DNA from: Oligoflexia bacterium | Lineage (GTDB): Bacteria > Bdellovibrionota > UBA1018 | Assembly (NCBI GenBank): GCA_963758495.1 | Contig: CAVWVI010000003.1 | Location: forward strand, 640,001-704,000 | Direction: 5' to 3' | DNA length: 64,000 nucleotides | In this document: in pieces, positions 1,667-59,623 of the stretch | Numbering within the stretch: the stretch's first letter is position 1 | Layout: each line of letters starts with the position of its first letter | Notes under the pieces: model-generated | Seen by the model: only the letters and a program-made list of their open reading frames with translations | What the model was told of the DNA's origin: nothing | Databases searched by the model: none | Translations under genes and position numbers: made by a program

Positions 1667-1678
1667 TCATGATTCGAA

Positions 1679-1714
1679 GTAGTTACTGTAAGGAACCCTA
1701 AAGGAACTGCTTAC
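1679..1714 (+). mobile_element. 36-nt short form of the GTAAG...CTTAC miniature element
   Basis: GTAGTTACTGTAAGGAACCCTAAAGGAACTGCTTAC matches both ends of the 101-nt copies; flanked by GATTCGAA (1671-1678) and GATTCGCA (1715-1722). Confidence 0.75.
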
Positions 1715-1788
1715 GATTCGCACGAGAAAGCATCACTTTGATTTTCATTTAAATTGAAGGGTTACCGCAACCGTGCGAAAACTAAATT

Positions 1789-2940
1789 ATGACTTCATTG
1801 GAGTTATTGATTTGTGTAGTGCTCGTTTTTTTGTCCGCCTATATGTCAGCCTCGGAAATCGCCTTATTTAGTCTTTCAAAATTCCAATTGAGGTCTTTAA
1901 AAGAGAATTTTAGACCGGTTCATCGTAAAATAAAGCGCCTCTTATCGGATCCAGGGGGCTTACTCATTACCACGCTTGTTGCAAATGAAGTCCTCAATAT
2001 AGCTTTAGCGTCATTCATTACAGAATTTGTATCTCGGAATCAGGCGTCCACCCATCTAAGACTCAGTCACATCCCTGATTGGGCATCTCAAACTTTAATC
2101 GGAATTTTAATTGCAACTCCCATCATCCTTCTTTTTTGCGAGATTACCCCCAAGGTCATCGCCGCACGAATGAACCGGCTGATTGCCATACTTACCGCCG
2201 GCCCTCTCAACATCATTTATGACCTATTTAAACCCATCCGCTACGCTTTAAAAATAACTGTAGCCATGATTATTCGCCTTATCCCTTCCGAAAATAAAAG
2301 AAGAATAGTGCTCTACCCAGAAGTGAATTCAACCGATACTACGAAGCATGAGACTATTCTCAAAGAGTCCGACTTTCTTTTAATGGTCGAAGAGGGTCAT
2401 AAAGAAGGCGCGATTCAAGAGGAAGAACTTGAGCTCATCCGTAATGTATTTGAACTCAACAATACCCCTGTATCAGAAATCTCAACGCCCCTCTCTCAAG
2501 TTTTAACGTTACCTGTAACCACCACTATCAAAGGAGCCTTAGCAGCAGTTCGAAATCAAAAATATTCTCGAATTCCCATCATTGGAATGAATCGAAAAGA
2601 AATCGTAGGCATTTTATACTCCAAAGATTTACTGAGATCCAAAATTCAAGCCGACAGTTTCCCAGATACGGTAACCTCGCTCATGCGTAAGCCCTTTTTT
2701 GTTCCACCCACTATGAAGCTCAATGCTCTCTTCCGACGATTCAAACAACATAAAATCCATATGGCTATAGTCAAAGCACCCAATGGCGAAATCACTGGGG
2801 TCGTGACTATGAATGACATTCTAGATGCTCTTTTTGAAGATCTTTTTACAGAAGAGGATTTACGAAAAAAATCAGAACATCCTCCTTCACGAATGCACCC
2901 CCATCATAAGAAACAGACTTCCGGGAGAAAAATCAAGTGA
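1789..2940 (+). CDS. CNNM/DUF21 + CBS-pair membrane protein (hemolysin/CorC-like)
   Basis: SASEIALFSLS N-terminal DUF21 signature, EITPK, YSRIPI and CBS repeats. Confidence 0.9.
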   Translation: MTSLELLICVVLVFLSAYMSASEIALFSLSKFQLRSLKENFRPVHRKIKRLLSDPGGLLITTLVANEVLNIALASFITEFVSRNQASTHLRLSHIPDWASQTLIGILIATPIILLFCEITPKVIAARMNRLIAILTAGPLNIIYDLFKPIRYALKITVAMIIRLIPSENKRRIVLYPEVNSTDTTKHETILKESDFLLMVEEGHKEGAIQEEELELIRNVFELNNTPVSEISTPLSQVLTLPVTTTIKGALAAVRNQKYSRIPIIGMNRKEIVGILYSKDLLRSKIQADSFPDTVTSLMRKPFFVPPTMKLNALFRRFKQHKIHMAIVKAPNGEITGVVTMNDILDALFEDLFTEEDLRKKSEHPPSRMHPHHKKQTSGRKIK

Positions 2941-4208
2941 TCACGCTTACAGTTTGGAAGCTCGTTGCAATGGTCACTCCACTTACAATCATAGAAGGTT
3001 TCTTTGCAGGTTCAGAAATCGCACTTCTATCTGCAGACAAACTCACCCTTATACAACAATCTAAACAAGGAAATACTCGAGCATCCTTAGCTTTAAAATT
3101 AGCAACTCACCCGGAACAAGTATTTTCAACCACCTTACTCATCACAAGCATCTGCGTCATCAGTAACTCAGCACTCATAGCTCTCTTTTTCTTAGAACAA
3201 TCACTCAAACATGCTGAATGGATAGCAGTCCTTGTCACTTCACCTCTGGTTGTCCTTTTAGGAGAACTCATTCCAAAAACAATTTACCAGAGGAATGCCA
3301 ACTTTTTGGCACCCTGGGTAGCCTATCCTATCCATTGGACGTATTGGTTATTTTACCCCATTACTCGGATTTTATCTTCTTACACAAATCGTCTCTCTCT
3401 TATCATTGGGCCTATAGAAGAGTTGCTCGCAGGAAGACGAAAAACGACTCGAGAGGAAATACGGGCACTTCTCTCATATACAAGAAATGAAACGGAGATC
3501 AAAACAAACGAAAAAAGAATGATCAAACGTATATTTGATTTTCGGTATTCCGAAGCGCAGCATGCGCTCATTCCTCTAGTCAGGGTAGACGCCATTGATG
3601 AGTCTGTTTCAGTTAAAGAAGCATTAGAAAGCTTTGAACGACATCGGCATTCTAGAATGCCTGCATATTTGGAACGCATCGACAACATCGTGGGAGTGAT
3701 AGAAGCAGTTGATATCCTATTTGCTACCGACCTGGAAGAGCCAATTAGTCACTACATCACTCCTGCCCAATACGTTCCGGAAACACAACCCCTTGCAGAC
3801 CTCATGCTTGATATGCGGCGAGAAAATCATGAAATGGCTGTAGTCGTTGATGAACACGGTGGGGCTGTCGGAATTTTGACGTTTGAAGATATTGCCGAAG
3901 AAATTGTTGGAGAAATTAGTGATGAGTATGATTACGAATCCCTGCCTTTCAAGGCAGTCTCAGAAACAAGCTGGGTCGTCAAGGCCAGCATGGAAATCCA
4001 GCAAATAAACGAGATCTTAAAACTTGAACTACCTGAAGGAAACTATGAGACTTTAAGTGGATTTTTGCTTCAACAATTTGGAAGAATTCCAGACATAGGA
4101 GATGAATTGTTCTTTGACACTCCTGCAGGTGCTTTCAAATTTACGATTCAAAAAGCTACCGAGCGACATATAGAAACCGTGCTGATTCAAAAAATGGAAT
4201 CCATCTGA
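2937..4208 (+). CDS. CNNM/DUF21 + CBS + CorC_HlyC protein
   Basis: FFAGSEIAL, GELIPK, HSRMP, VVDEHGGAVGILTFEDIAEEIVGEI, YETLSG; overlaps the upstream stop codon. Confidence 0.92.
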   Translation: MITLTVWKLVAMVTPLTIIEGFFAGSEIALLSADKLTLIQQSKQGNTRASLALKLATHPEQVFSTTLLITSICVISNSALIALFFLEQSLKHAEWIAVLVTSPLVVLLGELIPKTIYQRNANFLAPWVAYPIHWTYWLFYPITRILSSYTNRLSLIIGPIEELLAGRRKTTREEIRALLSYTRNETEIKTNEKRMIKRIFDFRYSEAQHALIPLVRVDAIDESVSVKEALESFERHRHSRMPAYLERIDNIVGVIEAVDILFATDLEEPISHYITPAQYVPETQPLADLMLDMRRENHEMAVVVDEHGGAVGILTFEDIAEEIVGEISDEYDYESLPFKAVSETSWVVKASMEIQQINEILKLELPEGNYETLSGFLLQQFGRIPDIGDELFFDTPAGAFKFTIQKATERHIETVLIQKMESI

Positions 4209-4268
4209 CCTATTTTTTTAAATATTTTTAACAAGAAGTCTGTACAATCATTATAAAGAGGCCATTCA

Positions 4269-4679
4269 ATGCAGAAGACAGTGCTCATTGTCGATGATAT
4301 TTCTTTCGTCAGAAAAACTCTCTCAGATATTTTAACAGCAGCACATTATCAAGTGGTTGGGGAAGCATCGGATGGCGCAGAAGCAGTGAATCTGTACGCC
4401 CAACTTCGACCCGATATTGTGACCATGGATGTAGTCATGCCCATGATGAGCGGAATTGATGCCACTCGACGAATTATCAAAGCCGACAAACATGCTAAAG
4501 TAATAATTATTTCAGCCATGGGCCAAGAAAATCTCGTTATGGAAGCGATCAACGTTGGAGCAAAAGACTATATTTTAAAGCCTTTTAGTACTGAAGACAT
4601 TTTAAAAACCGTTGAGCGAACGCTGCAAGGTGAACAAAACATCTTAGCGCGATCGACTCACCGGGAGAAACTGGGTTGA
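4269..4679 (+). CDS. CheY-like single-domain response regulator
   Basis: VLIVDD, phosphoacceptor TMDVVMP, ISAMGQ, KPF. Confidence 0.9.
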   Translation: MQKTVLIVDDISFVRKTLSDILTAAHYQVVGEASDGAEAVNLYAQLRPDIVTMDVVMPMMSGIDATRRIIKADKHAKVIIISAMGQENLVMEAINVGAKDYILKPFSTEDILKTVERTLQGEQNILARSTHREKLG

Positions 4680-4720
4680 GTGGGATTTAATCAATTAATC
4701 ATGAAAAGGCAGGAAGCCGC

Positions 4721-5257
4721 ATGATTGCACAGGAAGAGACAATACGAAGAGTAGTGAATGCATTACCGCATGAATTTCAATTTTATCATCTTGGAAAAGT
4801 AGAATTGCAATCCATTGATGTAAGCACTGCAAGGAGTCCTGTTGCGCCGGGAATTCAACTCTTTACGGCGCAACAGGACTCCTTGCAATTCTTGTCAACA
4901 GCCCTAGAGGAACTCATTACCATTGATTTTAAGGAAACCGATGCGATCGCGTACCATCTTTTTGGAGACTTACGAGCACTCATCATTATCCTTTTTGCAA
5001 AGGATTTAGATTTCGCGACTTATTCTGAATTGGGCAATGTACTCGCAAGTAAAATAGCCAATCAGTTGAGCTTAGACAACGGAGCAGATATTTTAATTTC
5101 TCCCCCACAACAGCTGAATCACGCTCAAATAGAGCAACTTATCCAAAATAAAAATACGGTTATCAGACGAACTTACACACACTTGAATAAAAACTCGGTT
5201 ATTCCTATAGCAACCTGGGTCTTACCGACTCCATCAGAAGGGTTTGGATATGCTTAA
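4721..5257 (+). CDS. CheC/CheX-like phosphatase-fold protein carrying an in-frame 36-aa element-derived insertion
   Basis: SELGNVLAS...ISPP resembles the CheC E-xx-N...P motif; directly downstream of a CheY-like gene; insertion 4820-4927. Confidence 0.6.
   Translation: MIAQEETIRRVVNALPHEFQFYHLGKVELQSIDVSTARSPVAPGIQLFTAQQDSLQFLSTALEELITIDFKETDAIAYHLFGDLRALIIILFAKDLDFATYSELGNVLASKIANQLSLDNGADILISPPQQLNHAQIEQLIQNKNTVIRRTYTHLNKNSVIPIATWVLPTPSEGFGYA
4820..4920 (+). mobile_element. 101-nt palindromic miniature element inserted in frame in a CDS
   Basis: Colinear with the copies at 20657 and 24786 (opposite orientation); 22-bp perfect stem TGCAAGGAGTCCTGTTGCGCCG/CGGCGCAACAGGACTCCTTGCA; direct repeat CCATTGAT at 4812-4819 and 4920-4927. 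Confidence 0.9.
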
Positions 5258-5576
5258 AGCAATTGGTTCTTGTTTAAAGATTTTGACCTTTTCAATTCTT
5301 GTATTGATTTTAGGAAATTGGTTCAAATGGGATGGCAGAACGATTTCAGATCAAGTAAAGTTTCACATGGCTCATGCTGAACGTTCCGAAACACTGAATA
5401 CGGTTCGTGAATGGGCACAGAAAATCACTCATGAAGCAAGCAAAGGGGCGCATATTAAATCCATCCATTTCTCCTCTCCTATGACTGTCACAGTACCCGA
5501 AGAGATTTCCCCTTCCGAAAGACAAAAACTTAGAGCACTCATCCAAGAACTCAATAGTTCACATAAAAAAGATTAA
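5244..5576 (+). CDS. Hypothetical protein with N-terminal membrane anchor
   Basis: ORF with a hydrophobic N-terminus overlapping the upstream gene. Confidence 0.65.
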   Translation: MDMLKAIGSCLKILTFSILVLILGNWFKWDGRTISDQVKFHMAHAERSETLNTVREWAQKITHEASKGAHIKSIHFSSPMTVTVPEEISPSERQKLRALIQELNSSHKKD

Positions 5577-5593
5577 AAACCCCAAATTTGATT

Positions 5594-5624
5594 AAAAAAA
5601 ACCCACTTCATTTCTGAAGTGGGT
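5594..5624 (-). terminator. Rho-independent terminator for the HU gene
   Basis: ACCCACTTCA-tttc-TGAAGTGGGT hairpin with an adjacent A-tract (U-tract on the minus strand). Confidence 0.75.
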
Positions 5625-5659
5625 CATCACTTTCATTCAATCGAATGATTCGTATTGAG

Positions 5660-5932
5660 TTATTTCAAACTGTCTTTGAATTCACGTCCTGGGCGAAATT
5701 TTGGAACTGTCATCGCAGGAATCTTAATCTCTTTGCCAGTCTGAGGATTACGACCAATACGAGCTTTACGCTTGGTCTTCGTGAAGGTGCCAAAACCGAT
5801 TAAGGTAACATCATCACCCTTTTTCACACTCTTCTTAATCGTATCTAACGTAGTATTTAAAACCATTTCTGCATCTACTTTGGTCATCTTCGTGTTCTTT
5901 GCCACTGCTTCGATCAATTGAGCCTTGTTCAT
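5660..5932 (-). CDS. hup: HU family DNA-binding protein (start reassigned to MNKAQLIEAV)
   Basis: GFGTF, ARIGRNPQTG, VPKFRPG; 90 aa from the ATG at 5932 with AGGAGA upstream. Confidence 0.93.
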   Translation of the reverse strand: MNKAQLIEAVAKNTKMTKVDAEMVLNTTLDTIKKSVKKGDDVTLIGFGTFTKTKRKARIGRNPQTGKEIKIPAMTVPKFRPGREFKDSLK

Positions 5933-6098
5933 TGTGTCTATCTCCTTAACATGTTGATTACGTGTCACTGACTTACCCCAAATTATTACTTCCTTGGAGG
6001 TATCCCCTTCACGAGGCTCCATGCGGCAAGCCAAACCTAACTAGCTTGAGATGATGTCCAAATACGGGGTCTCTGTCAACGCCAGTTTTAAAAAAAGT

Positions 6099-6650
6099 TC
6101 AACTTTCTCGGACAATCCTGAGCTTCTTGATTCCAACTTCCTCACGAGGTCGATCCATAGGACCCGTTTGAACACTTCCGAGCTTTTCCAATACATCTAG
6201 CCCTTTCACGACACTACCAAAAACTGAATGCTTGCCATCCAGCCACTGAGTGGGAACCAAGGTAATGAAAAACTGGCTGCCATTTGTATTTGGACCCGAA
6301 TTTGCCATAGATAAAACGCCTGCTGCGTTGTGTTTGAGCGTTGGATGAAACTCATCCTTAAATCGATAGCCCGGCCCCCCCGTACCCAGACCTAACCGAT
6401 CGCCACCTTGAACCATAAAATTTTTGATAATTCGATGAAAAATCGTTCCATCGTAAAAAGGATCAGTGCAGCTTTTTCCAGATTTTGGATCGGTGTAATC
6501 TTTCTCACCATTTGCTAAAGTCACAAAGTTTTTAACGGTTTCAGGTGCCTTTTCCTCCTCAAGCTTACAAGTGATATCGCCCAAAGTTGTTTCAAAAACC
6601 GCATAAAGACCTTTACCTAAACCTAAATTCTCTTCCACTGTAGATCGCAT
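6099..6650 (-). CDS. Cyclophilin-type peptidyl-prolyl cis-trans isomerase (likely start MRSTVEE)
   Basis: FHRIIKNFMVQGGD, LSMANSGPNTNGSQFFIT, WLDGKHSVFG; GGAG upstream of the ATG at 6650. Confidence 0.93.
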   Translation of the reverse strand: MRSTVEENLGLGKGLYAVFETTLGDITCKLEEEKAPETVKNFVTLANGEKDYTDPKSGKSCTDPFYDGTIFHRIIKNFMVQGGDRLGLGTGGPGYRFKDEFHPTLKHNAAGVLSMANSGPNTNGSQFFITLVPTQWLDGKHSVFGSVVKGLDVLEKLGSVQTGPMDRPREEVGIKKLRIVRES

Positions 6651-6728
6651 AATAGACTCCTTTTTACAGAGCGGTATCATGAATTCACTCAAGCCAGAAG
6701 CGGAAAGCAGAAGATCAGGCCCCTAGAC

Positions 6729-7196
6729 CTAAGAGGACTCATTTGATGACTTGAGTTGCTGCAATATACTGATTAACACCTCAGAGTTAGAGGCAAAGCA
6801 AATGAGCTTTAATGCCTCGTCCGCACTCACCCATCGATAATCATCATGTTCATGAGGGTCTAAGCGCACCCGAGGCGGTAAACGATCTTTGGAAACTATC
6901 ATGATCAAAAATCCGTACTCTACGACTTGCGATCCACGACTCTCAAACTGAAATGGCCTTCCTACCGATTGGGGATAGCCGGAAAAGGACAATCCGGTTT
7001 CCTCTTCAGCCTCTCGTAATGCAGCCTTATCCAAAGACTCCCCTTTTTCAACACTTCCAGTCACCGGTTGCCAAAAGCCTCCCCTTTGAGGGAGCGTTCT
7101 CAGAATCAAAAAAGAATACAAGCCTTCATTGAGATGATGAAAGCAAATCCATACTTGAACCTTTTGTTTTATTTTCTGAAAAATGGGATACCTCAA
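6729..7196 (-). CDS. Nudix hydrolase (NudB-like)
   Basis: FWQPVTGSVEKGESLDKAALREAEEETG Nudix box; EHDDYRWV. Confidence 0.88.
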   Translation of the reverse strand: MRYPIFQKIKQKVQVWICFHHLNEGLYSFLILRTLPQRGGFWQPVTGSVEKGESLDKAALREAEEETGLSFSGYPQSVGRPFQFESRGSQVVEYGFLIMIVSKDRLPPRVRLDPHEHDDYRWVSADEALKLICFASNSEVLISILQQLKSSNESS

Positions 7197-7244
7197 AGTA
7201 AGCGAAACTCTCTCATGAGTCAGTCACAAGTCTCTTAAATTAAT

Positions 7245-11716: not shown

Positions 11717-11792
11717 GCCGATGTAGCTCAGTTGGTAGAGCAACGCTTTCGTAAAGCGTAGGTCGTGTGTTCGATTCACATCATCGGCTCCA
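11717..11792 (+). tRNA. tRNA-Thr(CGT)
   Basis: Cloverleaf: GCCGATG/CATCGGC acceptor stem, GCTC/GAGC D-stem, ACGCT-TTCGTAA-AGCGT anticodon arm, TTCGATT T-loop, encoded CCA. Confidence 0.97.
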
Positions 11793-11954
11793 GTTTAAAT
11801 GTTACATTCTAAATTAATTTGCACTTAAATATTAAATAATAAAATCTAAAACTAGCTGATCTATAAGGTGTTTTCTTAATTTTGACATTAAAAGTCAAGT
11901 AATGGCCGCACTCAAGTATAAGTTGATTTTCTGAAGTTTAAGTTGAATTTTACG

Positions 11955-12926
11955 TCAGCCTAAAGAGGCTGTACGAGTAAAAATCACACTAGGGAGCCAG
12001 GTATAGTGGAAGGCAAATTGAGCTGACCAACCGAGCCGAGTGAGCAGAGAGGAGTCTTGGCGGGTCGAGTGAAGGTGACCGCAGGTTTGTCTTAGAATAC
12101 GAACAGGGATAGGAACTCCGACCGCAGCGATGGTAGCTTGCGCTATCAAAGTAGCAACGTATTCAGATGAGACAGGGCGATTGTGATTTCCTCTGGGTGG
12201 CAATATGAGTGACTGACGGGGGTAGGTCCATTTTGTTTTTTTGTAAATATTTAACCAATGTAGATAGTATCGTCTTTGAAGCTTAAAGAACCAGTCTGGC
12301 GAGGACTGGAGTTGGAGCTTCTGAGGCCGATTATAAAGTCGTCTTCCTTTTGTTCTCTGAGTACGATGATGAACGATGTTGAGAGTGGCCTGATCTTCCA
12401 TACAAAGAGTAGCAAGACGAAGGTCCTCACGACTCCAGCCGTAAAATAAAATAAGACTCAGAAGCAATGCTTGCTGAGGATCTGACTTGGGGGTTTTTAT
12501 GAAGGCAAAGATTTTTTTGATCTGAGATTCATCACATACTGTTAACTGCCCAGGAGATCTACTGACGATCACACTCTCTGCCGGATTAACAACTATATGC
12601 CGATTGGATTTTAAGAAACGGTAGAAACTATTGAAGCATGATAGAGCCTTTCGGCGATAGCCGAGATCCCCCGCATAAAGGCATGACAGGTATTTGAGAT
12701 AGTCCTCCATCATTCTTGGAGTGACATGCAATAGTGATACAGGGGCATCCAGAGTCTTTAGCCATTGGTTAAAATTGTCAATTGCATGCAAATAATGAAG
12801 ACAAGTAGCGTCCGCTCTTTTTGTCCTTTGCAGCATTTCCACGAAGCTTTGAAGAAGGGGATGTATTTCTGCATCAATTCGAATCTTTATGAGTTCAAAT
12901 CGGTGGTGATATTCACTCAAATGCAA
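11955..12926 (-). CDS. Tyrosine recombinase/integrase-like protein with degenerate catalytic motifs (possibly a pseudogene)
   Basis: SAM-like core-binding region (YLHAIDNFNQWL...SFYRFLK...NPAE); FYGWSREDL in place of GxRxxE; ILRQTCG in place of HxLRH; next to a tRNA. Confidence 0.65.
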   Translation of the reverse strand: MHLSEYHHRFELIKIRIDAEIHPLLQSFVEMLQRTKRADATCLHYLHAIDNFNQWLKTLDAPVSLLHVTPRMMEDYLKYLSCLYAGDLGYRRKALSCFNSFYRFLKSNRHIVVNPAESVIVSRSPGQLTVCDESQIKKIFAFIKTPKSDPQQALLLSLILFYGWSREDLRLATLCMEDQATLNIVHHRTQRTKGRRLYNRPQKLQLQSSPDWFFKLQRRYYLHWLNIYKKTKWTYPRQSLILPPRGNHNRPVSSEYVATLIAQATIAAVGVPIPVRILRQTCGHLHSTRQDSSLLTRLGWSAQFAFHYTWLPSVIFTRTASLG

Positions 12927-15352: not shown

Positions 15353-18300
15353 TCAATACTGGTAATGGAATGACTGGGAATCATGACCAATAGTACCAAT
15401 TTGATAAGTGAACGAGTAATCGATTCCATCTCCAGTTTTCAGCCCCTGAATGACGAGACTCCAGCTCTTATCTTGAGCTTGTATCATTCGAACATTTTGT
15501 TGCAGACCATTTTTATTCACTAGATAGTGAATATCCACAAATCCAAACCCAACCGATGAATTAGTTGGAATGACAGTAATTGTAACTTGTCCATTTCCAC
15601 TCACTACAACGTTTTGGCTCAAATCACCTACCGGCGTTGGCGTTGGCGTTGGCGTTGGCGTTGGTGTTGGCGTTGGTGTTGGCGTTGGCGTTGGCGTTGG
15701 CGTTGGCGTTGGCGTTGGTGTTGGCGTTGGCGTTGGTGTTGGCGTTGGCGTTGGTGTTGGCGTTGGCGTTGGTGTTGGCGTTGGTGTTGGATTCACACTT
15801 GGATAGATAAATTGAAACAGACTCGAATCATGACCAATAGTGCCAATTTGATACGTAAAAGAATAACTGAGCACATCACCTTGTTTCAACCCAGATATAT
15901 TAAGACTCCATGTTCCGTCATTAGCTTGCACCATTCGGACATTCTGCTGAGGATTAGCTTGATTTATTATATAATGGATATCTGCAAATCCGAATCCTGT
16001 TGATAGATTACTTGGAGTGAGAGTAACAGTTACTTCTCCATTTCCGCTCACTACAACCATTTGAGTAAAATCACCTACTGGCGTTGGTGTTGGCGTTGGT
16101 GTTGGCGTTGGTGTTGGCGTTGGCGTTGGTGTTGGCGTTGGCGTTGGCGTTGGCGTTGGCGTTGGCGTTGGTGTTGGCGTTGGCGTTGGCGTTGGTGTTG
16201 GTGTTGGTGTTGGTGTTGGCGTTGGCGTTGGCGTTGGCGTTGGTGTTGGTGTTGGTGTTGGCGTTGGTGTTGGTGTTGGTGTTGGCGTTGGTGTTGGTGT
16301 TGGTATTGGTGTTGGTATTGGTGTTGGCGTTGGCGTTGGTGTAATACCTCCTTGTGATGAAATCAGTGCACCGGCAGGCACACTTAACTGAGTTCCGTCT
16401 GAAAAATTCACCGGAACAGTTGAAGAACTAGAATTATAAGCTACGTATTGACGAACCCCGTTATTGTTAAATACTGCATAGGTGGGAAGATCTGCAGTAA
16501 CTTGAGTATCAAGTTGACCAAATGTATTTAAATTCTGAATCCAATAATAAGTATGGGCGTTTGTCTCTCCGGTTTCGATAGTGTAATTCAGATTATTATT
16601 AAATTCAGCTACAGCTGCAGCAGGGTTATACAGGGCTTCAATACTCATATGAATATCCCTCCATCTATCAGGATTCGATCCACTATGAGTTCTCATATAA
16701 GTTTGATTGGTTTGAAGATAACTTGGATTTCTTCCTAAATAAAGAGAGCCTCCTGTAACTGGCATAAAATTAATACCGTGCAATTCTTCTCGATAACCAT
16801 CCCACCAGATTGAGTAAGCGCCTCCATCAAGCCAAACCATCCCCAAGGTGGGTTCAGGAAAATCTGATGGAATAGTCTGTTTATCAATATTAAACCAATA
16901 CTGCTCGATCGCGGACGCCTCAGTAGCATAAAGATAAATCCCAAAATCGCGAATCGTATCATTGTGTGTCGCGACACCCCAAAGCATCACACCTGACGAA
17001 AAATTCATACTTTCTGATGAAGATTCTTCGTTATTACCAGCAGCAAAAAGAGAGGGCCCACTCGCCCAACCATGACCAGAAAAGGAATCAAACATTCGTA
17101 AAAATGGAAATCGACTGTCCGTTCGGTCCCAGTTATTCGCGTCCTTAATTAAAAGTTCGACCATGCCACCGTATTGACTTTGGGATGCCCAGTTCGAATC
17201 ATATTGAGCAATCGTTGCTGCTGCTTGAATAAAATAACCATAATGAAAATGATGATCATTTAATTGAGTATCAGTTCCGTAACTAGCAGGATAGCCAATG
17301 AGAGTGTTCCAAGTAGAATCATAATAAAATTGACGCGAGTTTTGACCTTGAAACCAGTCCTGCAACCCACTTTTTAATTCGGATAAGAAAAGATCACGTG
17401 CAGCCGTGTAATTAATTTGATCTGCGATGCGAACTAACCTTGCAATTCGACCTAGAGCCTTTCCATACCAGTAGGTATCAGTCCCTGCATTAACACCCCA
17501 ACGATCAGATGGGCTTAGATTATAAATATTATTAACATACTGATAAAGTTGGGCAGATGAAAAACCGTTTATTCCATCTTGTGCTACTAAAGGTAGCTCA
17601 GGTAGAATTCCATTGAAAGTTAATTGAGTTGAAAAACTTGAAGCATCGACTACTTTCATCGTTCCTCGTGAAGAAACATACGTGTAGGAAGTAACCGGAT
17701 CACTCGAATTCATCCATTGATGACGAAACAAAGCTATCAAGGGTCGATTTACATTATTATTTCCACTCTCTTTTAAAACAGTGTCCGCACTATATTGAGT
17801 CACTATCTGAGCGTGCGTTGAATCATAAGTCCAATTAACACTCGTATTTACAACAAATGCATAAGCATGCTGTCGATAAATTTCAAGAGTACTTGTTGTA
17901 TTATCAGGCAATACTGCAACTGAAAGATAGTCTTGTCCATTTTGACTTGACGTTAATTGCGTTGAACTCGGCGAAGTCCAAACTGACCCCGAGGGAGCAA
18001 AGATTCCGTAATTATGTCCATTAACACTAACGCCCAGAACACCACCGTTTTGATACCAGACGACCGGAGTACTGCTAAAATTAATTACCGCATTGCCTCC
18101 GTTTACACTAAAATAAGCATACGGAATACCTTGACTCATTGTGCTTTTTAAAGTTCTAACACCATCACTCCAGACCGCTGTCACAGCCCAATCAGAATAA
18201 CTTTCAACTTCAGTGTCAGAAGAAGTTAATCCTTGTACACCTACACTCAAATCTTGCTGAAATCCATAATGATATTCATGAACCGTCAATCCTAAATCCG

Positions 18301-18631
18301 TAGTCACATAAGGCGTAATTGAGTATTGGGTACTATAACCTAACCCTAATCCTCCACTCACTGCCTTCATCGAAAGCGGATACGAAAACAAATTTTGAGA
18401 ATATTGCTGAGTTGGGTCATATTTCCATAATATTGAGGTCCACCATTTATGTGTGGCAGTTGGAAGCGAAAAACTCGAAGTAACCCGAGGCACCACGGAA
18501 GTGCCATTCTGGTCAGAGGGACCTGACGTACCTGCAGGGAGAGTTGTGGTATAATTTCCAGCACCTACTGGAACTAAAACAAACAAAAGCGACCAATAGT
18601 CCTGGAAACACTTAAAGTTAATTTTTCTCAC
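15353..18631 (-). CDS. GH81 endo-beta-1,3-glucanase with two Pro-Thr linkers and two CBM56-like modules
   Basis: [30 protein letters not shown]81 motifs; repeated module FxDIHY...QQNVRM...YSFTYQIG. Confidence 0.9.
15633..15790. repeat. (GGYGTT)n hexamer tandem repeat encoding a Pro-Thr linker
   Basis: About 26 units read directly. Confidence 0.95.
16079..16342. repeat. (GGYGTT)n hexamer tandem repeat encoding a Pro-Thr linker
   Basis: About 44 units, two being GGTATT (Pro-Ile) variants. Confidence 0.95.
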
Positions 18632-20618: not shown

Positions 20619-20656
20619 TCATGTGCCCCAAAAACCAGCACCTACAGGCGCTCTAA

Positions 20657-20757
20657 GTAAGTAGTTCCTTTAAGGCTGTCGACAAGCACTACAAGGAGTC
20701 CTGTTACGCTGTAAAGAATTGGATTCCCGGCGCAACAGGACTTCTCGCAGTGCTTAC
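20657..20757 (-). mobile_element. 101-nt palindromic miniature element
   Basis: GTAAGTAG...GTGCTTAC; flanks CGCTCTAA (20649-20656) and CGTTCTAA (20758-20765); between convergent genes. Confidence 0.9.
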
Positions 20758-20770
20758 CGTTCTAATCATA

Positions 20771-24615: not shown

Positions 24616-24785
24616 TTACCTATATAAACTTCACAACAGTACCTTGAGAAAACCTATTAGAAAAGAGGGATTAAAAAAAATAAATAATACACTAAGAAGT
24701 CTAACCACCTATATTTGGACTCATCATATTAGAATCACCTAAAATCCTTGTTGAATCCCATTTTGCTCATCCTTTACTGTTTTTC

Positions 24786-24886
24786 GTAAGTAGTTCCTTT
24801 AGGGGTGTTGATTAGCACGATAAGGAGTCCTGCTGCGCCGTAAAGATTTGAATTCCCGGCGCAACAGGACCCCTTATCGTGCTTAC
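24786..24886 (-). mobile_element. 101-nt palindromic miniature element with perfect 8-bp TSD
   Basis: GTAAGTAG...GTGCTTAC flanked by TGTTTTTC at 24778-24785 and 24887-24894. Confidence 0.93.
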
Positions 24887-24973
24887 TGTTTTTCTATCTT
24901 CTAGTTGCGTAGTACTACACTAAAGGATAAGTGATGTCTTAATAAAATCTTCGAATTCGAAGTAGGAGGCAGT

Positions 24974-27437: not shown

Positions 27438-27513
27438 ATAAACATTAAATCGAGCTCTGTTGCAGCGTAAAGATTCCGTCTTTCGCTACTACAGAGCTCG
27501 ATTTAATGCTTAC
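27438..27513. repeat. 76-nt palindrome related to the GTAAG...CTTAC element family
   Basis: 18-bp perfect stem CATTAAATCGAGCTCTGT/ACAGAGCTCGATTTAATG, ends in GCTTAC, shares CTGTTGCnnCGTAAAGATT core. Confidence 0.65.
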
Positions 27514-46325: not shown

Positions 46326-46358
46326 GATCCATAAGGAAAATATTATTTTCATAGATCC

Positions 46359-46382
46359 GTAAGCACTAAAGGAACTACTTAC
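46359..46382 (+). mobile_element. 24-nt minimal form of the GTAAG...CTTAC element
   Basis: GTAAGCAC|TAAAGGAACTACTTAC = fused ends of the 101-nt element; flanks ATAGATCC and ATAGATAC. Confidence 0.8.
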
Positions 46383-46398
46383 ATAGATACAATAATTC

Positions 46399-53533: not shown

Positions 53534-53574
53534 AATTCCCTTTCTATCAAATGAGTGTCCCCATCCTCAGCTCA

Positions 53575-54720
53575 TCACCAACTTAGACCTACCCCAATAA
53601 CACCATAACGCGTATTAGAAAACAAATCAGTAGCGCTTCTTACTGTTACTTGCGATAACTCGCCCACTAAATGATATCTCCACGTATTACCTAATGGCCA
53701 GGAAAAGGAGCCACCACCTTTGATCTCAAAAGATCCTGAAATGAGACTGATACCATTCGCTAAAAAACTGAGACCATTACTAGAAAGAGGAGAAAATTTC
53801 AAATAAGTATGCATTTTTACATCATCTCCTAACTGTAGTTCACCTGCCATTCCGACCATGGGTCCATACATATTTTTGGTTCCCACAACACCTTCACTAG
53901 CAACCATCGTAAGATAAGATAGTCCGAGTAATAATCGGAATTCCACATCCGAATCCGCAAACAATGTATAACCTATACGAAGGCCAAACCCCATATATCG
54001 AATATCCGAAATATTATCGTTTTTAACCGTAAATAAAGGCAAGACGTTATAATAACCACTCATATTCATATCCCATTTTCTGGAAGGAAAATAATACCCA
54101 TATTCCCCTCTAAAAACTGTAGCTATCTCTTTAGCATTGGGAAGATCAGTCTCGGTGTATGAAACTCCACTGAGGCCATATTGAAAACTGAGATAATGAG
54201 TACCGTCTGAACCTCCAGAGATTGCTTCAGGGGCATTTACTTTTCTCAAGGTATATGAATGCTCCTCTATAATTTGCCCATCAGCTTCGACTCTAAAATC
54301 AAGAATTGTAGTGTCTTCAGTAATAGGCAATGTAACAGTAAAATCGCCATTATCATTTATACTGACAGCTTGTAAATTGATTGAAATTTGATTAAACGAT
54401 CCAGAGTAGTTTCCAGTGAGTGTAGCTGTCGACTTTTTTTCTCCATTTTCTTCATGAACTTCAACAGGAGCGGTTTCCGACCACCACCTCAGCCTTGTAT
54501 CCTGCTCATCGTGATTCACTCCTTCAATAACGACCCAATCTCCAACTGATTCTATTCCTGAATCACCTGCCCAAGTAAAGCCATCTCGAGAGATAACAGG
54601 TAGAAATAGAACCACCGAGAACGCAATCCCCAGACACAATAAAACATAAAAAGTACGCGAAACGGCACCCAACCCCTTGGTCCATGGGAACTTATTCAAT
54701 TCTCTTTTCATTGCGCGCAC
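53575..54720 (-). CDS. Hypothetical exported protein with C-terminal beta-barrel
   Basis: Hydrophobic N-terminus, Ig-like middle region, amphipathic strands ending in W. Confidence 0.6.
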   Translation of the reverse strand: MRAMKRELNKFPWTKGLGAVSRTFYVLLCLGIAFSVVLFLPVISRDGFTWAGDSGIESVGDWVVIEGVNHDEQDTRLRWWSETAPVEVHEENGEKKSTATLTGNYSGSFNQISINLQAVSINDNGDFTVTLPITEDTTILDFRVEADGQIIEEHSYTLRKVNAPEAISGGSDGTHYLSFQYGLSGVSYTETDLPNAKEIATVFRGEYGYYFPSRKWDMNMSGYYNVLPLFTVKNDNISDIRYMGFGLRIGYTLFADSDVEFRLLLGLSYLTMVASEGVVGTKNMYGPMVGMAGELQLGDDVKMHTYLKFSPLSSNGLSFLANGISLISGSFEIKGGGSFSWPLGNTWRYHLVGELSQVTVRSATDLFSNTRYGVIGVGLSW

Positions 54721-54931
54721 TATTAAAAGTTTACTATAGTTTTAAGCTAGTGCACAAACTAATCGAAACTCTTGAAGAAATGGAAATGATTCTCATCAGA
54801 CGATGTGCGCCGCATCATAGCTAAACTCATAAAAAAAGATTCACATTTTTCTTAAAAAGAAGTATGTAGCGCGCGGGGTGTGTGTGACGCGCCGAGAAAG
54901 AAATTCTATTCAATAGTCTCTGGGGGGATCT

Positions 54932-56932
54932 ATGGGGTTAAATTCAACTCGCAACAGAGTTCCATTTTTTCTAACATTTTTTATAATCTTTATTCAATTC
55001 ATTGGAAACCAAGATGCTTTTGCTTACGAAAAGGGGACCTTTTTTAGGCACTGCCTTGATCAAATCGATGCAAATCAGTTATCTCTGCATCGCTTCTTAA
55101 TAGATTCTCATCCTTTTGTACAATTATGGTCGAACGAAAATAAGGAGGGCAGTCAAAACAGCTATCAATCCAGGCCAACCTTATCATTCATTGATCAGAG
55201 AACTCTTCTCAGAGATTTAATGACTGAGTACGTGAATACGTACATAGAAAATCAAGAGTCTTTTGATCCCTACCATCACGAGCAACTTACGACCTGGAAA
55301 GCCAAAGGAACCATGCTTTATCGCCATCTTTGTCAAAACAGTGACTTTAAGCCTACATGCAAGGAGCACAAAGACAAGATCATATCTTTTTTTGAGAACC
55401 ACTTGAAAAATATAGATGCAATTAAACCACTCCCTCACTTAAAGCAAAACAACTCAACGTACCTAGGCCTATTTAATCAAGCTATAATAGAAATACGTCA
55501 AAAATATTCAGTGACTCGTGCAGCAATAAATAATGAAATCACATCTACGCTTTTTAAAGAAAACACTTTGGATACCTCTATCCATTCAGCTCAGGATTAC
55601 AATCATCAACTCCAGAATATCCTTTCACAGCCCAATCTATCTGAAATGAATCAACACTATAAAAAGACTTACCTAAAACATGCTCGATCATTTCCTGGAA
55701 AGATACTCTTCACAAAAACAATGTTGAATCGAATTGAGGGAAACTTTTTCGAAATTCACTTTGTAGACCTCATCTTAGCTGTTGAAGAAATAACAAAAGA
55801 ACTCAGGAATGACTTTCAAAAGCTTCTTAAAGAAAACCCTCTCATCATGAAATCGCTGGATATAGAAGAAACCGCTGAAAAGGAAGAAAGACTCAAACTT
55901 GAACCTAAAAACATCGAGTTAGTTAACTCTTGTAATCAATCAATAGAACAATGGTTTCATTCAAGTAATATTTCTCAAATCTTTGCTTCTGAAGAAATAT
56001 TTTCTTTGATTGAAGCACTCAATATAACTGACATCGAAACAATCCGATTTCTAACCCAAAACCAATTACAAAGGGCAATGTGGAGATTAAGAGAATTAGC
56101 ACTCACAGACAAAGCCCAAGCTCTAGAAAATTGGATTAATCACAATATCCTAGCTGATGATCAAGTTGAAAAATCCACCCTATTGGGAGGTGGGATTACT
56201 ACCACAAAACTCATTTTCTATCCTCACTTTGCCAAAGGCGTTTATAAACCTAAACCAAGAGATCATAAACGATATCATCAAGGACTCTTTGATTGGGTCG
56301 ATCATAAATATCAGGACTTGATGGATTCACTTGGAGGAGATTATCGGAAAGAGATTGCAGCATATAAAATTGATCGACTCATTAATCTTAACTTAGTTCC
56401 TCTGACAAAGAAGGTGGATTTAGCTGATGGTGTAGGTTCTTTACAACTTTTTATAGATCAAGCATCTACGGCCCGAATTATGAACGAAGTTGATATTAAC
56501 AAACCCATTCAATCTGGACATTGGAGTTCTCCATCTGGAAGAGCCCTATTACATCGAAATGCTCTATTGTTTGACTGGCTCATTGATAATCACGATAGAA
56601 ACGTTGATAATTATCTCTTCCAAGATGATGGTCAAGTCATCCTAATCGACCATGGATGGACATTCCTTTGTTACCATTTTCACTCTTTATCACATGAACA
56701 AATTAAAAAAATGATACCAACCCGAACTATCTATCAAAACATAAAAATACTCGCACAAGATCACGCCCTAGTAGATAGAGAGTTAAGCCCACTCCTCAAT
56801 TCAATTAGACTTAAACTCTTTAAAGAAAGGCTGAACTTTTTCGTAAAAAACGTTGAAGAACTGATTTTAAAAAATGGAGAAAATGACGTCTTCTCTAAAG
56901 AAGAGGAAGGTCCTCCAATATATTTACAATAA
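54932..56932 (+). CDS. Secreted protein with C-terminal PI3/PI4-kinase-like (atypical kinase) domain
   Basis: Signal peptide AFA; GVYKP, EIAAYKIDRLINLNLVP, GSLQLF, FDWLIDNHDRNVDN, LIDHG. Confidence 0.8.
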   Translation: MGLNSTRNRVPFFLTFFIIFIQFIGNQDAFAYEKGTFFRHCLDQIDANQLSLHRFLIDSHPFVQLWSNENKEGSQNSYQSRPTLSFIDQRTLLRDLMTEYVNTYIENQESFDPYHHEQLTTWKAKGTMLYRHLCQNSDFKPTCKEHKDKIISFFENHLKNIDAIKPLPHLKQNNSTYLGLFNQAIIEIRQKYSVTRAAINNEITSTLFKENTLDTSIHSAQDYNHQLQNILSQPNLSEMNQHYKKTYLKHARSFPGKILFTKTMLNRIEGNFFEIHFVDLILAVEEITKELRNDFQKLLKENPLIMKSLDIEETAEKEERLKLEPKNIELVNSCNQSIEQWFHSSNISQIFASEEIFSLIEALNITDIETIRFLTQNQLQRAMWRLRELALTDKAQALENWINHNILADDQVEKSTLLGGGITTTKLIFYPHFAKGVYKPKPRDHKRYHQGLFDWVDHKYQDLMDSLGGDYRKEIAAYKIDRLINLNLVPLTKKVDLADGVGSLQLFIDQASTARIMNEVDINKPIQSGHWSSPSGRALLHRNALLFDWLIDNHDRNVDNYLFQDDGQVILIDHGWTFLCYHFHSLSHEQIKKMIPTRTIYQNIKILAQDHALVDRELSPLLNSIRLKLFKERLNFFVKNVEELILKNGENDVFSKEEEGPPIYLQ

Positions 56933-56948
56933 AAAGTAGCGCATAATT

Positions 56949-58802
56949 ATGAGAATATCTTCAAAATTTTTAACTTTAACCTATCTAATAGCTGGTATCC
57001 TTCTTTTACCTTATTCTGCTGTTTTTGGGGAAGAAAATACTGAATCAGAAGACGTTAACCCTGCGCCTGGTTTTATTGAACGATATTCATCTGACTCAAA
57101 CTATGGAACAAAACTAGAAGAAATAGTCAAATGGGAAGATCTCTCCAATCAATATGTATTAGGATACGGACTAGATAATAGTGGTAAACTAATCCCATTC
57201 GCTATCTATGATAAAACCTTTTCTACTTATTTTTTTTCACATTTCTGGAAACTTTTAATTCTAGGGAGTGTTGGCATTAGTGACTTAAATTTGGCTCATT
57301 TAAACAAGATCATCAATAAACAAAAAATAAAGAAAAGCATTAAAAATAATCTGGATTTTCATCTTACACCTGAGCAACGGGAAGAACTTGAATCCACACA
57401 AATTCACATCTCGGGAGATTTTTGGAAAAATAAAAATATAATTTGGAAGTCAGGAAAACAGCCAGACCTCTTGGGACCATCCCCTTTACGAGTATCTTTT
57501 CGAGATTTTAATTGGTCTGAGATGGCAAAAGATCATCCCACAGTAAGTCAAGCTTTGTTAACCTTTGGCAAATCCACACACTATTTATCTAAAAATGAAG
57601 GGATCCCACTCTCACTTGAAATTAACTCTGTCACTACTTATCCAAACGTCAATTTTCCAACTTTGTCAGAGCCTACTTATGTAGATAAAGTCATTGAAGA
57701 CATTGAATTTGATCTTCAAGCAGATGGCACCTATAAAATCCATCATGAAGAATTTAAAAAACTTGCGCGCCCTATCAAAGTAATTGATCTTCATAAAAAA
57801 AACTCATCACTTCAAAGAGCAGCATCTTGGGCTCTAATCACCATGAGTATTAAAAGCGGGTTAAGCGCAATTCCTATTTATGGACCACCTCAAGCAACTA
57901 TGGCCATGCTTGAACGCGTCTTCGACTTTATCGAACTCCTTTATCTCCATCGTCATGCACAAGCCCTCATTTTGGTATTAGAGGCATTAGATCATAATCA
58001 AAATTCGCCTTTTACAACTTCTAAGCTCTCTGAGGAGCAACTGAAAGATGCCGTTTTTTACCTACTCAGAAGTCAAACCATGCTTTCGTCAATTTTTCTT
58101 AACCTATTTTCAAAAAATGAAACCCTGACTGATAAATACCTACATAAAATTAATACTAAAAGAGCACAAGGATTAGTGAACTTAAGTAAAAAAGAGATAG
58201 AATTATTTCCCATTCCAAATACTTATTTTGCTCTAGGAGTAAAAAAAGACTTAGAGACTGAGGAAATTAAAAAACTTAAAATTTATGCTTTAGGTTTTAC
58301 AAAACTAGCAAGGAGAAAAAAACCCATTACGGTAGTTGACTTTCTTCGCCCTCATAAAGAAAAGAGAAAAAGGGATCGTCTCCAAGTACTCTTACTTAGT
58401 GCGAACTTCATCTATGTCCCCATTCCTACAATATCAAGCATTATAAAACTAATATTTAAAGAAATAGTCATTCGAGAATACCATCGACGTCAGATGTGGG
58501 AAAATGGCTACTTAGCTCATATTCATCACTCACCTAATGAACTTAAAGAATTACTTATGAGAACCACAGGGATTCCTGAAGCACTGGCCGAAAAATATGA
58601 AAAATCTGCGATTTTCTCAATAGAATCCAAGAGAATAGATCCTCTTGACTTAACTTCTGAAGAAATACCCCTACACCGAAAACAAGTAGAGAATTGGCTT
58701 AAATTTTATGACCCTTCTTATCAAAGCTGGAGTGAACTTCACACCGAGAAATCTCGAGTCTCCGTTATTAAAACCAACAATATAATTCACAATCTGGAGT
58801 AA
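56949..58802 (+). CDS. Secreted hypothetical protein with internal hydrophobic helices
   Basis: Signal peptide; ORF co-oriented 16 nt after the kinase gene. Confidence 0.7.
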   Translation: MRISSKFLTLTYLIAGILLLPYSAVFGEENTESEDVNPAPGFIERYSSDSNYGTKLEEIVKWEDLSNQYVLGYGLDNSGKLIPFAIYDKTFSTYFFSHFWKLLILGSVGISDLNLAHLNKIINKQKIKKSIKNNLDFHLTPEQREELESTQIHISGDFWKNKNIIWKSGKQPDLLGPSPLRVSFRDFNWSEMAKDHPTVSQALLTFGKSTHYLSKNEGIPLSLEINSVTTYPNVNFPTLSEPTYVDKVIEDIEFDLQADGTYKIHHEEFKKLARPIKVIDLHKKNSSLQRAASWALITMSIKSGLSAIPIYGPPQATMAMLERVFDFIELLYLHRHAQALILVLEALDHNQNSPFTTSKLSEEQLKDAVFYLLRSQTMLSSIFLNLFSKNETLTDKYLHKINTKRAQGLVNLSKKEIELFPIPNTYFALGVKKDLETEEIKKLKIYALGFTKLARRKKPITVVDFLRPHKEKRKRDRLQVLLLSANFIYVPIPTISSIIKLIFKEIVIREYHRRQMWENGYLAHIHHSPNELKELLMRTTGIPEALAEKYEKSAIFSIESKRIDPLDLTSEEIPLHRKQVENWLKFYDPSYQSWSELHTEKSRVSVIKTNNIIHNLE

Positions 58803-58806
58803 ATAA

Positions 58807-59559
58807 ATGTATACTTTTATTAGAAAATCACCTCGACTTTTGGGAATCTTGTTATTAATACCCACACTTGCTCACTCAAACTACGAAACCTTAACTCATT
58901 TCTCTGTTTCACATATAGGCGATAAGGGTAAAGAATCACTTGAAGAATTAATCAAGCCAGTGAATGTAGCTCGATTAATACAAAAATACGCCAATGAAAA
59001 ATCAGACTATAAAACCGATGTTGAATCCTTCACAAACGAAAACAATAGACCAGGAATTCAAATTGATTTTAAAAAATTATCCGCTCCAGACTCAAATGAT
59101 AAAACACAGGATGAACCTCACACTTCTTCATACTGGAATATTACAAATCAAGCATTTACGGGAGTCAAAGGATACTTTTCTAATCTAAAATCACTAGTAA
59201 ACGAGTCATTGAGTTCCTATTTTTCAAGCGGTACAGCGATAGGATACCCCAGCCATCGCAGGACCAGTTGTGAAAAAAACGGAGTTCGCATTGACCTAGA
59301 TCTTCAAGACTCTTCTTATAATGTTTTGGCTATCGCTCATGCTATCGCTTTAGATATATGCTATTATCAAACTGAGATTGAACCAGATATTTATGATTTC
59401 AAAATGCAAATTCACGTTATGCTTGATCCAGGACCCCTTTTTTCTAAAGAAATATCACCTGCAATGTATCAACGTATTACTGTAGAAACTCAATTATTGA
59501 GTAATGTATTTTATGAATTATTTTACTCTATTCGGAGAGATCTTATCAAAAGGAAATAA
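58807..59559 (+). CDS. Secreted hypothetical protein
   Basis: Signal peptide ending AHS; GGAG RBS. Confidence 0.7.
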   Translation: MYTFIRKSPRLLGILLLIPTLAHSNYETLTHFSVSHIGDKGKESLEELIKPVNVARLIQKYANEKSDYKTDVESFTNENNRPGIQIDFKKLSAPDSNDKTQDEPHTSSYWNITNQAFTGVKGYFSNLKSLVNESLSSYFSSGTAIGYPSHRRTSCEKNGVRIDLDLQDSSYNVLAIAHAIALDICYYQTEIEPDIYDFKMQIHVMLDPGPLFSKEISPAMYQRITVETQLLSNVFYELFYSIRRDLIKRK

Positions 59560-59587
59560 TGATTCAGGCGACAGATCAACACTATTA

Positions 59588-59623
59588 GTGCGTAGTTCCT
59601 TTAGGGATCCTTGCAGTACTTAC
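59588..59623 (-). mobile_element. 36-nt short form of the GTAAG...CTTAC element
   Basis: Reverse complement GTAAGTACTGCAAGGATCCCTAAAGGAACTACGCAC is colinear with 1679-1714; no TSD recognisable. Confidence 0.7.

Follow-up and report, generated by a model that had tools for sequence, protein, structure and literature searches.

A 101-nt insertion element of an Oligoflexia bacterium with 7- and 8-bp target duplications and a likely IS66-family mobilizer

As a rule, insertion sequences of the IS66 family duplicate 8 bp of their target, ISDge4 being an example. Published IS66 ends start with GTAA, as given in passages of PMC12888890 and PMC12898284. MITEs, non-autonomous class II elements, are well known; passages of PMC3189936 describe one of them, MITEPsy1 of Pseudomonas syringae, as a 100-nt, IS5-linked element that duplicates 4 nt and, at 104 nt in all, shifts the frame in genes. 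None of the titles and abstract openings returned by our literature searches described an IS66-derived MITE. Palindromic repeats that lie in frame in unrelated protein-coding genes, the Rickettsia palindromic elements (RPEs), are described in passages of the review PMC10969869, in which the term 'IS66' appears nowhere. The element analysed here belongs to an ordinary class, and what is unusual about it is its 7-bp duplications and its in-frame copies.

The window, the whole 64,000-nt stretch of contig CAVWVI010000003.1 that was analysed, holds six copies in both orientations, each found at the position that a sequence-only reading of the same DNA had given for it (Table 1). The three 101-nt copies are 82–86% identical to one another. 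Genome-wide, a profile search found 143 merged loci, intact or eroded, or one per 25.6 kb, a count well below the hundreds to which the sequence-only reading had extrapolated; 40 of these are near full length (at least 90 nt). The reversed genome gave 0 matches in the profile search, and left-end anchors number 117 in the genome versus 1 in its reverse. The family is a real 101-nt non-coding insertion element, a MITE, and has the traits of that class: a length of 101 nt, no transposase ORF and multiple dispersed copies. At the gathering score, no Rfam family matched the element, and only one tRNA was found in the window.

Table 1. Features of the element family and of the host gene in the window
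Feature	Position	Strand	Details
Left terminal inverted repeat, ~25 bp	24786..24810	+	GTAAG tip; consensus with inner CTGTTG box
Left hairpin arm	24813..24840	+	Third copy of the right end, without the GT tip
Loop, 16 nt	24841..24856	+	Other copies: carries three nested insertions and is included in two inversions
Right hairpin arm and right terminal inverted repeat	24857..24886	+	
101-nt full copy	24786..24886	+	Intergenic, divergent genes on either side; reference anatomy; DNA hairpin z −8.36
8-bp target duplication TGTTTTTC	24778..24785	+	Repeated at 24887–24894, 8/8 match
101-nt full copy	4820..4920	−	In frame inside ORF 4721–5257; codons 34–69 including the duplication
7-bp target duplication CATTGAT	4813..4819	+	Repeated at 4921–4927, 7/7 match
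101-nt full copy	20657..20757	+	Convergent genes; 8-bp duplication 7/8, 20649–20656 / 20758–20765
36-nt form, likely internal-deletion relic	1679..1714	−	Lon gene stop 12 nt before; 8-bp duplication 7/8, 1671–1678 / 1715–1722
24-nt form, likely internal-deletion relic	46359..46382	−	Convergent genes; 8-bp duplication 7/8, 46351–46358 / 46383–46390
36-nt form, likely internal-deletion relic	59588..59623	+	Convergent genes; duplication unrecognizable (3/8)
Host gene, CheC/CheX-like, 178 aa	4721..5257	+	After response-regulator gene 4269–4679

In the element, a left end of 25 bp is followed by a hairpin of 28 bp and by a right end, which is duplicated inward as the hairpin. Its consensus left and right ends are identical at 16 of 25 positions. 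A 74-nt element made of the hairpin only, with a duplication of its own, was looked for and none was found. Beyond the source genome, the family had no match in 60 relatives, nor, with one mismatch allowed, in 115; a looser pattern recovered a sister family in the nearest genus, and we rejected the idea that the family is confined to the source genome. The searches yielded no relative from the same genus. Exact left-end patterns in wider collections gave 3 matches in genome contigs and 23 in metagenome contigs, which we take as chance because none extended beyond ~20 nt, and plasmids and viral contigs gave no match to the element.

Both target duplications and empty sites show that the element inserts. 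Allowing at most one mismatch, 54 unselected two-ended copies include 11 with a 7-bp duplication (control 0.40), 11 with an 8-bp duplication (control 0.11) and 0 with a 9-bp duplication; 7 or 8 bp are thus repeated in 22 of the 54, versus ~0.5 expected. In a revised set of 57, from which 3 nested or mis-paired rows had been removed and to which 6 had been added by hand, the lengths are 7 bp in 15 and 8 bp in 13. Duplications are unrecognizable in 25 of 51 two-ended copies. For the copy at C4:2169, three paralogous sites are empty, each with a single copy of the 7-mer. In another case, one copy of the element is nested inside the loop of a second. Empty orthologous sites, which had been named as a check by the sequence-only reading, are represented by 11 aligned orthologues (139–196 aa) of the protein encoded by ORF 4721–5257, all without the element peptide. 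Together with site-specific duplications far above control, the empty sites support the proposal of a non-autonomous element mobilized in trans. As a side observation, a search for duplication halves swapped between copies gave 7 loose candidates among 2925 pairs, none of them convincing.

A uniform duplication of 8 bp, as had been supposed, is not supported, because 7 bp is equally common among the 54 copies. In the window, the 8-bp flanking repeats reported at 24786, 1679, 20657 and 46359 stand; at 4820 the repeat is a perfect 7 bp and matches at only 3 of 8 positions as an 8-mer, the earlier 8-mer having counted in the terminal C of the element itself, given the 101-nt boundaries. This copy can also be parsed as 8 bp with one tip base lost, with a net insertion of 108 nt both ways. 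The same parse raises a general alternative, in which all duplications are in truth 8 bp long and those read as 7 bp lost one junction base during or after insertion. It fits 8 of the 15 7-bp cases, including 4820 (chance expectation 39%, p = 0.19), and does not fit the other 7. At C4:2169, where the paralogues are empty, both tips are intact and exactly 7 bp are repeated; furthermore, 6-bp duplications do not rise above the control (1 of 57 versus 0.59), and 7-bp duplications occur in the sister family as well (3 of 34, control 0.12). We regard junction loss as a fairly unlikely explanation, and retain the reading in which the element duplicates either 7 or 8 bp.

At 7 bp, an insertion adds exactly 36 codons to a predicted ORF, because 101 and 7 make 108 nt, and two copies, one of them in the window, accordingly lie in frame in intact ORFs. 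In the consensus, three frames run through the 108-nt insertion without a stop. Open-frame copies are 2 of 30 full-length copies, in different reading frames, a number too small for a significant association. The host protein in the window would be 142 aa without its insert, and 44 of the 74 family genomes contain a match to its ORF; since the length of the insertion loop varies among orthologues, the breakpoint cannot be placed to the residue from the protein alignment. PF04509 is matched by 9 of the 12 aligned members (best E = 7e-6), with the window protein itself at E = 0.002, below the cut-off. Residues E103 and N106 are invariant in the 12 aligned sequences and form an E-x2-N motif, which we take to be the CheC/CheX phosphatase motif. 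The predicted structure is confident except at residues 34–65, and its best Foldseek matches are CheX and CheC structures. With a CheC fold and the E-x2-N motif present, the gene is predicted to encode a chemotaxis phosphatase, and the insert is predicted to occupy a flexible loop of this conserved chemotaxis-type protein.

The likely mobilizer, judged from the ends of the element, is a three-gene IS66-family transposase acting in trans that is now not found in the assembly. The window was said to lack a transposase, and a Pfam scan of 18 of its 67 listed ORFs agrees, with no transposase family detected. The IS66 end trait, terminal repeats of ~25 bp that start with GTAA, is present in the element. 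A complete tnpA–tnpB–tnpC IS66 of 2.84 kb, confirmed by Pfam, lies in a related genome (G017:C172:3681-6520), and its terminal repeats are identical to the MITE ends at 15–17 of 25 positions. Ends of its clade (genomes G017 and G364) reach 14–18 of 25 versus 7–15 for the other IS66 termini compared, a comparison in which a MITE-derived pattern, with matches over 400 genomes at control level, supplied two of the three matching end types, the third was chosen by eye, and one unrelated IS66 end also reaches 14–15. No near-identical autonomous partner was found among the IS66 termini compared. The link to IS66 rests on the similarity of ends, because no transposase of the matching clade was found in the source genome. 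The IS66 affinity suggested by the sequence-only reading therefore survives as a best match to tnpABC elements in related genomes, and its resident or ISBst12-type (single-ORF IS66) partner is unsupported: the resident ends match those of the source-genome and G072 MITEs at only 8–12 of 25 positions. We rejected the resident IS66 elements, three copies with a single ORF and a truncated piece of tnpC, as mobilizers; their ends differ, and no MITE end lies close to any of them. Because the 101-nt element does not encode TnpC (PF03050), with or without TnpA or TnpB, it is not classed as an IS66 member and only as likely IS66-mobilized. A transposase of this kind would bind at the inner CTGTTG box, with its cuts falling at the tips and staggered by 7 or 8 bases.

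Could a DDE transposase outside IS66 with a variable duplication length, such as an IS21-like or rve-domain enzyme, have moved the element instead? The 7/8 split is unseen in the six IS66 duplications that were readable in our analysis (five of 8 bp, one of 9 bp and none of 7 bp), and passages of PMC5658596 describe ISS12 of Pseudomonas putida as duplicating 5–8 bp, mostly 7. An ORF with an rve domain in genome G073 also has a left-end-like site upstream, and the source genome carries a homologue; we rejected this candidate, as the flanks of 30 loci of the rve family do not match the MITE ends consistently. IS21 termini are TG, and the element lacks a TG terminus because the base outside its tip is not conserved. 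The best end match, moreover, is the Pfam-confirmed tnpABC IS66, and a mobilizer outside IS66 seems distinctly unlikely. An origin as REP/REPIN-type repeats spread by a RAYT (HUH) nuclease would suit the long co-varying hairpin and the intergenic placement near gene 3′ ends. In those systems, the RAYT gene is flanked by repeats and target duplication is absent. The site-specific duplications of 7 or 8 bp contradict such an origin, and the genome gave a sole Y1 match, to a short TnpA-like ORF that none of the repeats abuts, the nearest stub being ~1.4 kb off; we give this origin almost no weight. We consider the account as a whole probable: a 101-nt element with 7- or 8-bp duplications, likely moved by an IS66 tnpABC transposase, with the steps of decay and placement proposed below.

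Most loci have decayed: 86 of the 143 are shorter than 50 nt and have lost the hairpin. The 24- and 36-nt forms, counted earlier among the copies, are likely relics of internal deletion in place. Short repeats of the full element mark their junctions, and the 36-mer is present in both crossover variants, one to each side of a mismatch. Slippage at these repeats would delete the hairpin and leave relics of 24, 25, 36 and 48 nt; deletion of the right end as well would leave left-end stubs. At three loci that have one paralogous right flank in common, the element is present as a full copy, a right stub and a left stub, which argues against the short forms being mobile minimal elements themselves, as do their junctions and the fact that no private shared variants were evident by eye. 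Their recurrence (36 nt in 8 and 24 nt in 5 of 54 copies) and the perfect or near-perfect duplications of several short forms would suit mobility, which we nevertheless judge very unlikely beside internal deletion. Duplications persist at a similar rate in short forms and in full copies (8 of 22 versus 14 of 28), which gives no sign that the short forms are older.

The hairpin arms co-vary. Across 39 copies, pairing is kept in 63 of 65 double changes, versus 14.0 ± 3.2 in shuffles that ignore the relatedness of the copies, and left and right ends show 5 concerted versus 129 one-sided changes. The hairpin interior is inverted in two copies. Arm homogenization and spacer inversion are the signature of template switching described in PMC8604942, and polymerase template switching after insertion may have kept the arms complementary and twice inverted the interior. 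An alternative, in which selection on RNA structure (mRNA 3′ protection or termination) maintains the hairpin and the family is partly domesticated, draws on the same arms: 37 of 92 one-sided changes yield G–T pairs, and the hairpin of the sister family is likewise conserved (62 of 72 double changes paired). It draws also on placement. Copies cluster at gene 3′ ends, with 24 of 52 intergenic two-ended copies between convergent genes versus 133 of 738 random intergenic points, and 39 of 53 copies between co-directional genes are oriented against transcription (p = 0.0008). The loss of the hairpin at most loci, interior inversions indicative of a DNA-level process and the lack of an Rfam match to the element in the window weigh the other way, and we hold selection on RNA to be unlikely. 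Under the template-switching reading, compensatory changes need not prove RNA function. Through selection, the copies that remain would be mostly intergenic and close to gene 3′ ends; there the tip TAA, which is the stop codon of 10 predicted genes, could act as a stop. Relative to GC skew, orientations number 68 versus 49.

Compared with described systems, the element shares with MITEPsy1 its size class, IS-related terminal repeats, target duplication and, here likely, movement in trans, as far as passages of PMC3189936 describe these; it differs in its likely link to IS66 and in 108-nt insertions that keep the frame. The three-gene IS66 of G017 resembles it in the GTAAG tip, the ~25-bp repeats and, at the matching register inside them, a CTGT(T/G)G box, and a multi-copy sibling of that IS66 has 8-bp duplications (2 pairs). 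Unlike the three-gene IS66, whose clade was not found in the source genome, the MITE is without coding capacity, has its right end in a third copy that points inward and forms a hairpin, and shows 7 bp in about half of its readable duplications. This near 1:1 mix differs from the 8 bp that IS66 would be expected to give, and a candidate transposase can be named for it. In one genome, moreover, ~140 copies record the stepwise decay of a hairpin element through arm homogenization, inversion and collapse. It is conceivable, though we lean against it, that a divergent IS66 clade staggers its cuts by 7 or 8 bases near-equally, so that a 101-nt MITE preserves the frame (108 nt) and writes 36-residue inserts into functional proteins. 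If true, this would supply an enzyme and a mechanism behind protein-coding palindromes of the RPE-like kind, and the chemotaxis phosphatase of the window would be a working example. The in-frame copies also suggest how a palindromic repeat can come to lie in frame within proteins by a simple route, as described in Rickettsia. The likeness to RPEs, a palindromic repeat in frame in unrelated protein genes, is one of description in passages of PMC10969869; here, only 2 of 30 full copies lie in open frames, and in differing ones, the frame is kept through the length of the duplication, and a candidate mobilizer can be named.

The 101-nt element inserts into target DNA. The six family members that a sequence-only reading had located in the window lie exactly where it put them, in both orientations; the flanking 8-bp duplications it described hold for the 24786 copy (8/8) and the 1679, 20657 and 46359 copies (7/8 each), and none was recognised at 59588. 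At 4820, its supposed 8-bp duplication is, with 101-nt boundaries, a perfect 7-bp duplication, because the element's terminal C had been counted into it. DNA folding z scores of the three 101-nt copies are −8.4, −3.2 and −7.8; the 24- and 36-nt forms fold no better than shuffled sequences, and an Rfam scan of the window returned one tRNA only and no match to the element. Among other features of the window, a 323-aa ORF adjoining a tRNA gene matches a protein from locus L037 as well as two further sites in the genome, and may be an integrase at an island edge.

Coordinates of element copies and other features (C1–C5, contigs of the host genome)
Feature	Location	Locus	Remark
101-nt copies (starts)	window 4820, 20657, 24786
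36-nt copies (starts)	window 1679, 59588
24-nt copy (start)	window 46359
Predicted host ORF of 4820 copy	window 4721-5257		downstream of response-regulator gene
tRNA gene and 323-aa ORF	window 11717-12926
GH81 glucanase	window 15353-18631		CBM56 domains; long tandem repeats of 12-nt period
Inverted repeat	window 27439-27512		32 nt, 88% complementary, 10-nt spacer; outside the element family
Loop insertions	C4:456105-456378; C4:837031-837301; C3:614933-615139
Resident single-ORF IS66	C4:964964-966684; C3:100870-102589	also L043
rve-domain family	C5:152655-153698	L220; also L177
Second MITE family or partners, examples	C1:176307-177663; C3:350186-351550; C4:456171-456331	L124; L125; L132
HNH-protein repeat	C1:198998-200587	L127	1.59 kb, two copies

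Across the genome (3.66 Mb, 5 contigs, 92% complete), 117 left-end anchors were found, compared with 1 in the reversed genome. Two ends were recognised at 54 and the left end alone at 63, 18 of which show a degenerate right tip under a looser test; right ends lacking a left end are far scarcer, about a dozen among 47 free right anchors, judged by eye. Merging profile hits with anchors gave 143 loci, of which 40 are 90 nt or longer, 17 measure 50–89 nt and 86 fall below 50 nt; a profile search of the reversed genome gave 0 hits. Mean identity to the consensus is 89% across the 39 near-full copies, and the two most similar copies are 2 positions apart, so the family is mostly old. Tipped with GTAAG and bearing a CTGTTG box further in, the termini of the consensus are 25-bp imperfect inverted repeats (16/25 identical); positions 28–55 repeat the right-end sequence a third time and pair with 72–99 around a 16-nt loop. 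Where the left end borders the interior (positions 23–28, equivalent to window 24808-24813), the consensus reads TTGACA, a −35-like hexamer; it is mutated in the 24786 copy itself, and in left-end stubs it would point toward flanking DNA.

Two duplication lengths recur. Among the 54 unselected two-ended copies, allowing at most one mismatch, 7-bp duplications flank 11 (control 0.40), 8-bp 11 (control 0.11), 6-bp 1 and 9-bp 0; no duplication was recognisable in 25 of 51 two-ended copies. A curated set of 57 (the 54 minus 3 nested or mis-paired rows, plus 6 added by hand, several picked for a visible duplication) holds 15 copies with 7-bp and 13 with 8-bp duplications. The 7-bp cases might be 8-bp duplications that lost one tip base: 8 of 15 also parse this way and 7 do not, a rate not above chance (39%, p 0.19). 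At the C4:2169 copy, the 7-mer is present once at three paralogous sites, a comparison we read as decisive for a 7-bp duplication there. Insertions concentrate in the 16-nt loop, a hot spot: one copy of the element is nested there within another copy, and a second MITE has entered the loop twice, at the same 8-bp target but in opposite orientations. Stricter initial searches of relatives for the element gave 0/60 and then 0/115; with a looser pattern, the nearest genus proved to carry a sister family (genome G072 gave 44 matches and G073 a few), which has the same anatomy and a consensus identical at 70/101 positions, and whose duplications (n=34) are 7 bp in 3 (control 0.12) and 8 bp in 1 (control 0.03). 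Matches in public sequence collections were judged chance.

Placement was counted on a crude ORF map: 2/54 two-ended copies fall inside genes versus 4262/5000 random points, 24/52 intergenic copies lie between convergent genes versus 133/738 (p 3e-6), and 39/53 copies between co-directional genes are oriented against transcription (p 0.0008). In 10 predicted genes the TAA of the element tip serves as the stop codon.

Element plus 7-bp duplication makes 108 nt, and 2 of 30 full-length copies, window 4820 and C4:2169, have an open frame through the element and 90 nt either side. Both carry perfect 7-bp duplications, an association that is statistically non-significant in a test table one 7-bp copy short; they read different frames of the element, whose consensus is stop-free in 3/6. 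The C4:2169 host gene has paralogues without the insert. The 4820 host ORF is matched in 44/74 family genomes, and 9/12 members of its family match Pfam CheC. The element peptide is absent from 11 aligned orthologues, at a loop of variable length among them, and the window frame stays intact, at 142 aa, once the element and one duplicate are taken out. The modelled window protein (mean pLDDT 80.5) has low confidence only at 34–65 and the last five residues, and Foldseek ranks CheX and CheC top.

Resident IS66 elements (three copies of a single-ORF element and a truncated tnpC fragment) were rejected as partner, their ends agreeing with those of the MITE at just 8–12 and 9–11 of 25 positions. 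Two of these copies lack a duplication of their own, with flanks that are near reverse complements of each other; an IS66 in genome G025 has inverted 9-bp flanks. A complete element of 2.84 kb in genome G017, of the same family, has an HTH ORF, Pfam matches to TnpB and TnpC, and identical ends matching the MITE ends in register at 15–17 of 25. A multi-copy sibling there, its body unassembled and its clade assigned from C-terminal residues by eye, scores 14–17 and has two perfect 8-bp duplication pairs. Genome G364 has one end scoring 17–18 and a 59% TnpC homologue on another contig; the remaining IS66 termini compared score 7–15 of 25. All six readable IS66 duplications are 8 or 9 bp. The G017-type clade turned up in 3 of 331 genomes and was not found in the host genome; its link to the MITE is therefore inferred from end similarity and carries ascertainment bias, two matching end types having come from a search with a MITE-derived pattern that overall hit as often as its control.

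Other mobile sequences share the genome. The second, younger MITE family (18 copies, 161–162-nt core, TTGTGCGCC ends) is accompanied by 6 autonomous partners, each 1.36 kb long; the two of their ORFs that were scanned, of 386 and 393 aa, gave no Pfam match and only a weak IS1 match in NCBIfam, and may encode an unclassified transposase. The rve-domain transposase-like family, present in 55/401 phylum genomes, scores under the IS481 cut-off, and the HNH repeat codes for a 360-aa protein with weak IscB and Cas9d matches.

Within the hairpin, two-sided arm changes in 39 copies keep pairing in 63/65 cases, against 14.0 ± 3.2 with arms shuffled between copies, a control that takes no account of relatedness. 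The interior is inverted in two copies. The left end, outside the hairpin, shows no co-variation with the right (5 concerted, 129 one-sided changes). PMC8604942 describes template switching as giving arm homogenisation and spacer inversion. Most of 22 short two-ended forms are joined at 2–5-nt repeats of the consensus; judged by eye, the 36-mer exists in versions that cross over before or after a mismatch within an imperfect 6-nt repeat. Of three loci whose right flanks are paralogous, one holds a full copy, another a right stub and the last a left stub. These observations point to in-place collapse of full copies; against it, duplications are only slightly less frequent in short forms (8/22) than in full copies (14/28).

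The element is real and of a known kind, showing every MITE trait that could be tested. A literature search at the level of titles and abstract openings found no description of an IS66-derived MITE. The element probably behaves like an IS66 element; we do not file it there because it has no transposase and its duplication length is split between 7 and 8 bp. Its unusual traits, as read from sequence, are this split and the predicted in-frame protein inserts. Duplication-length variation is documented for other IS families (Table 4 of PMC3189936; PMC5658596), and in-frame MITE fusions and RPEs are already known, as PMC10969869 recounts.
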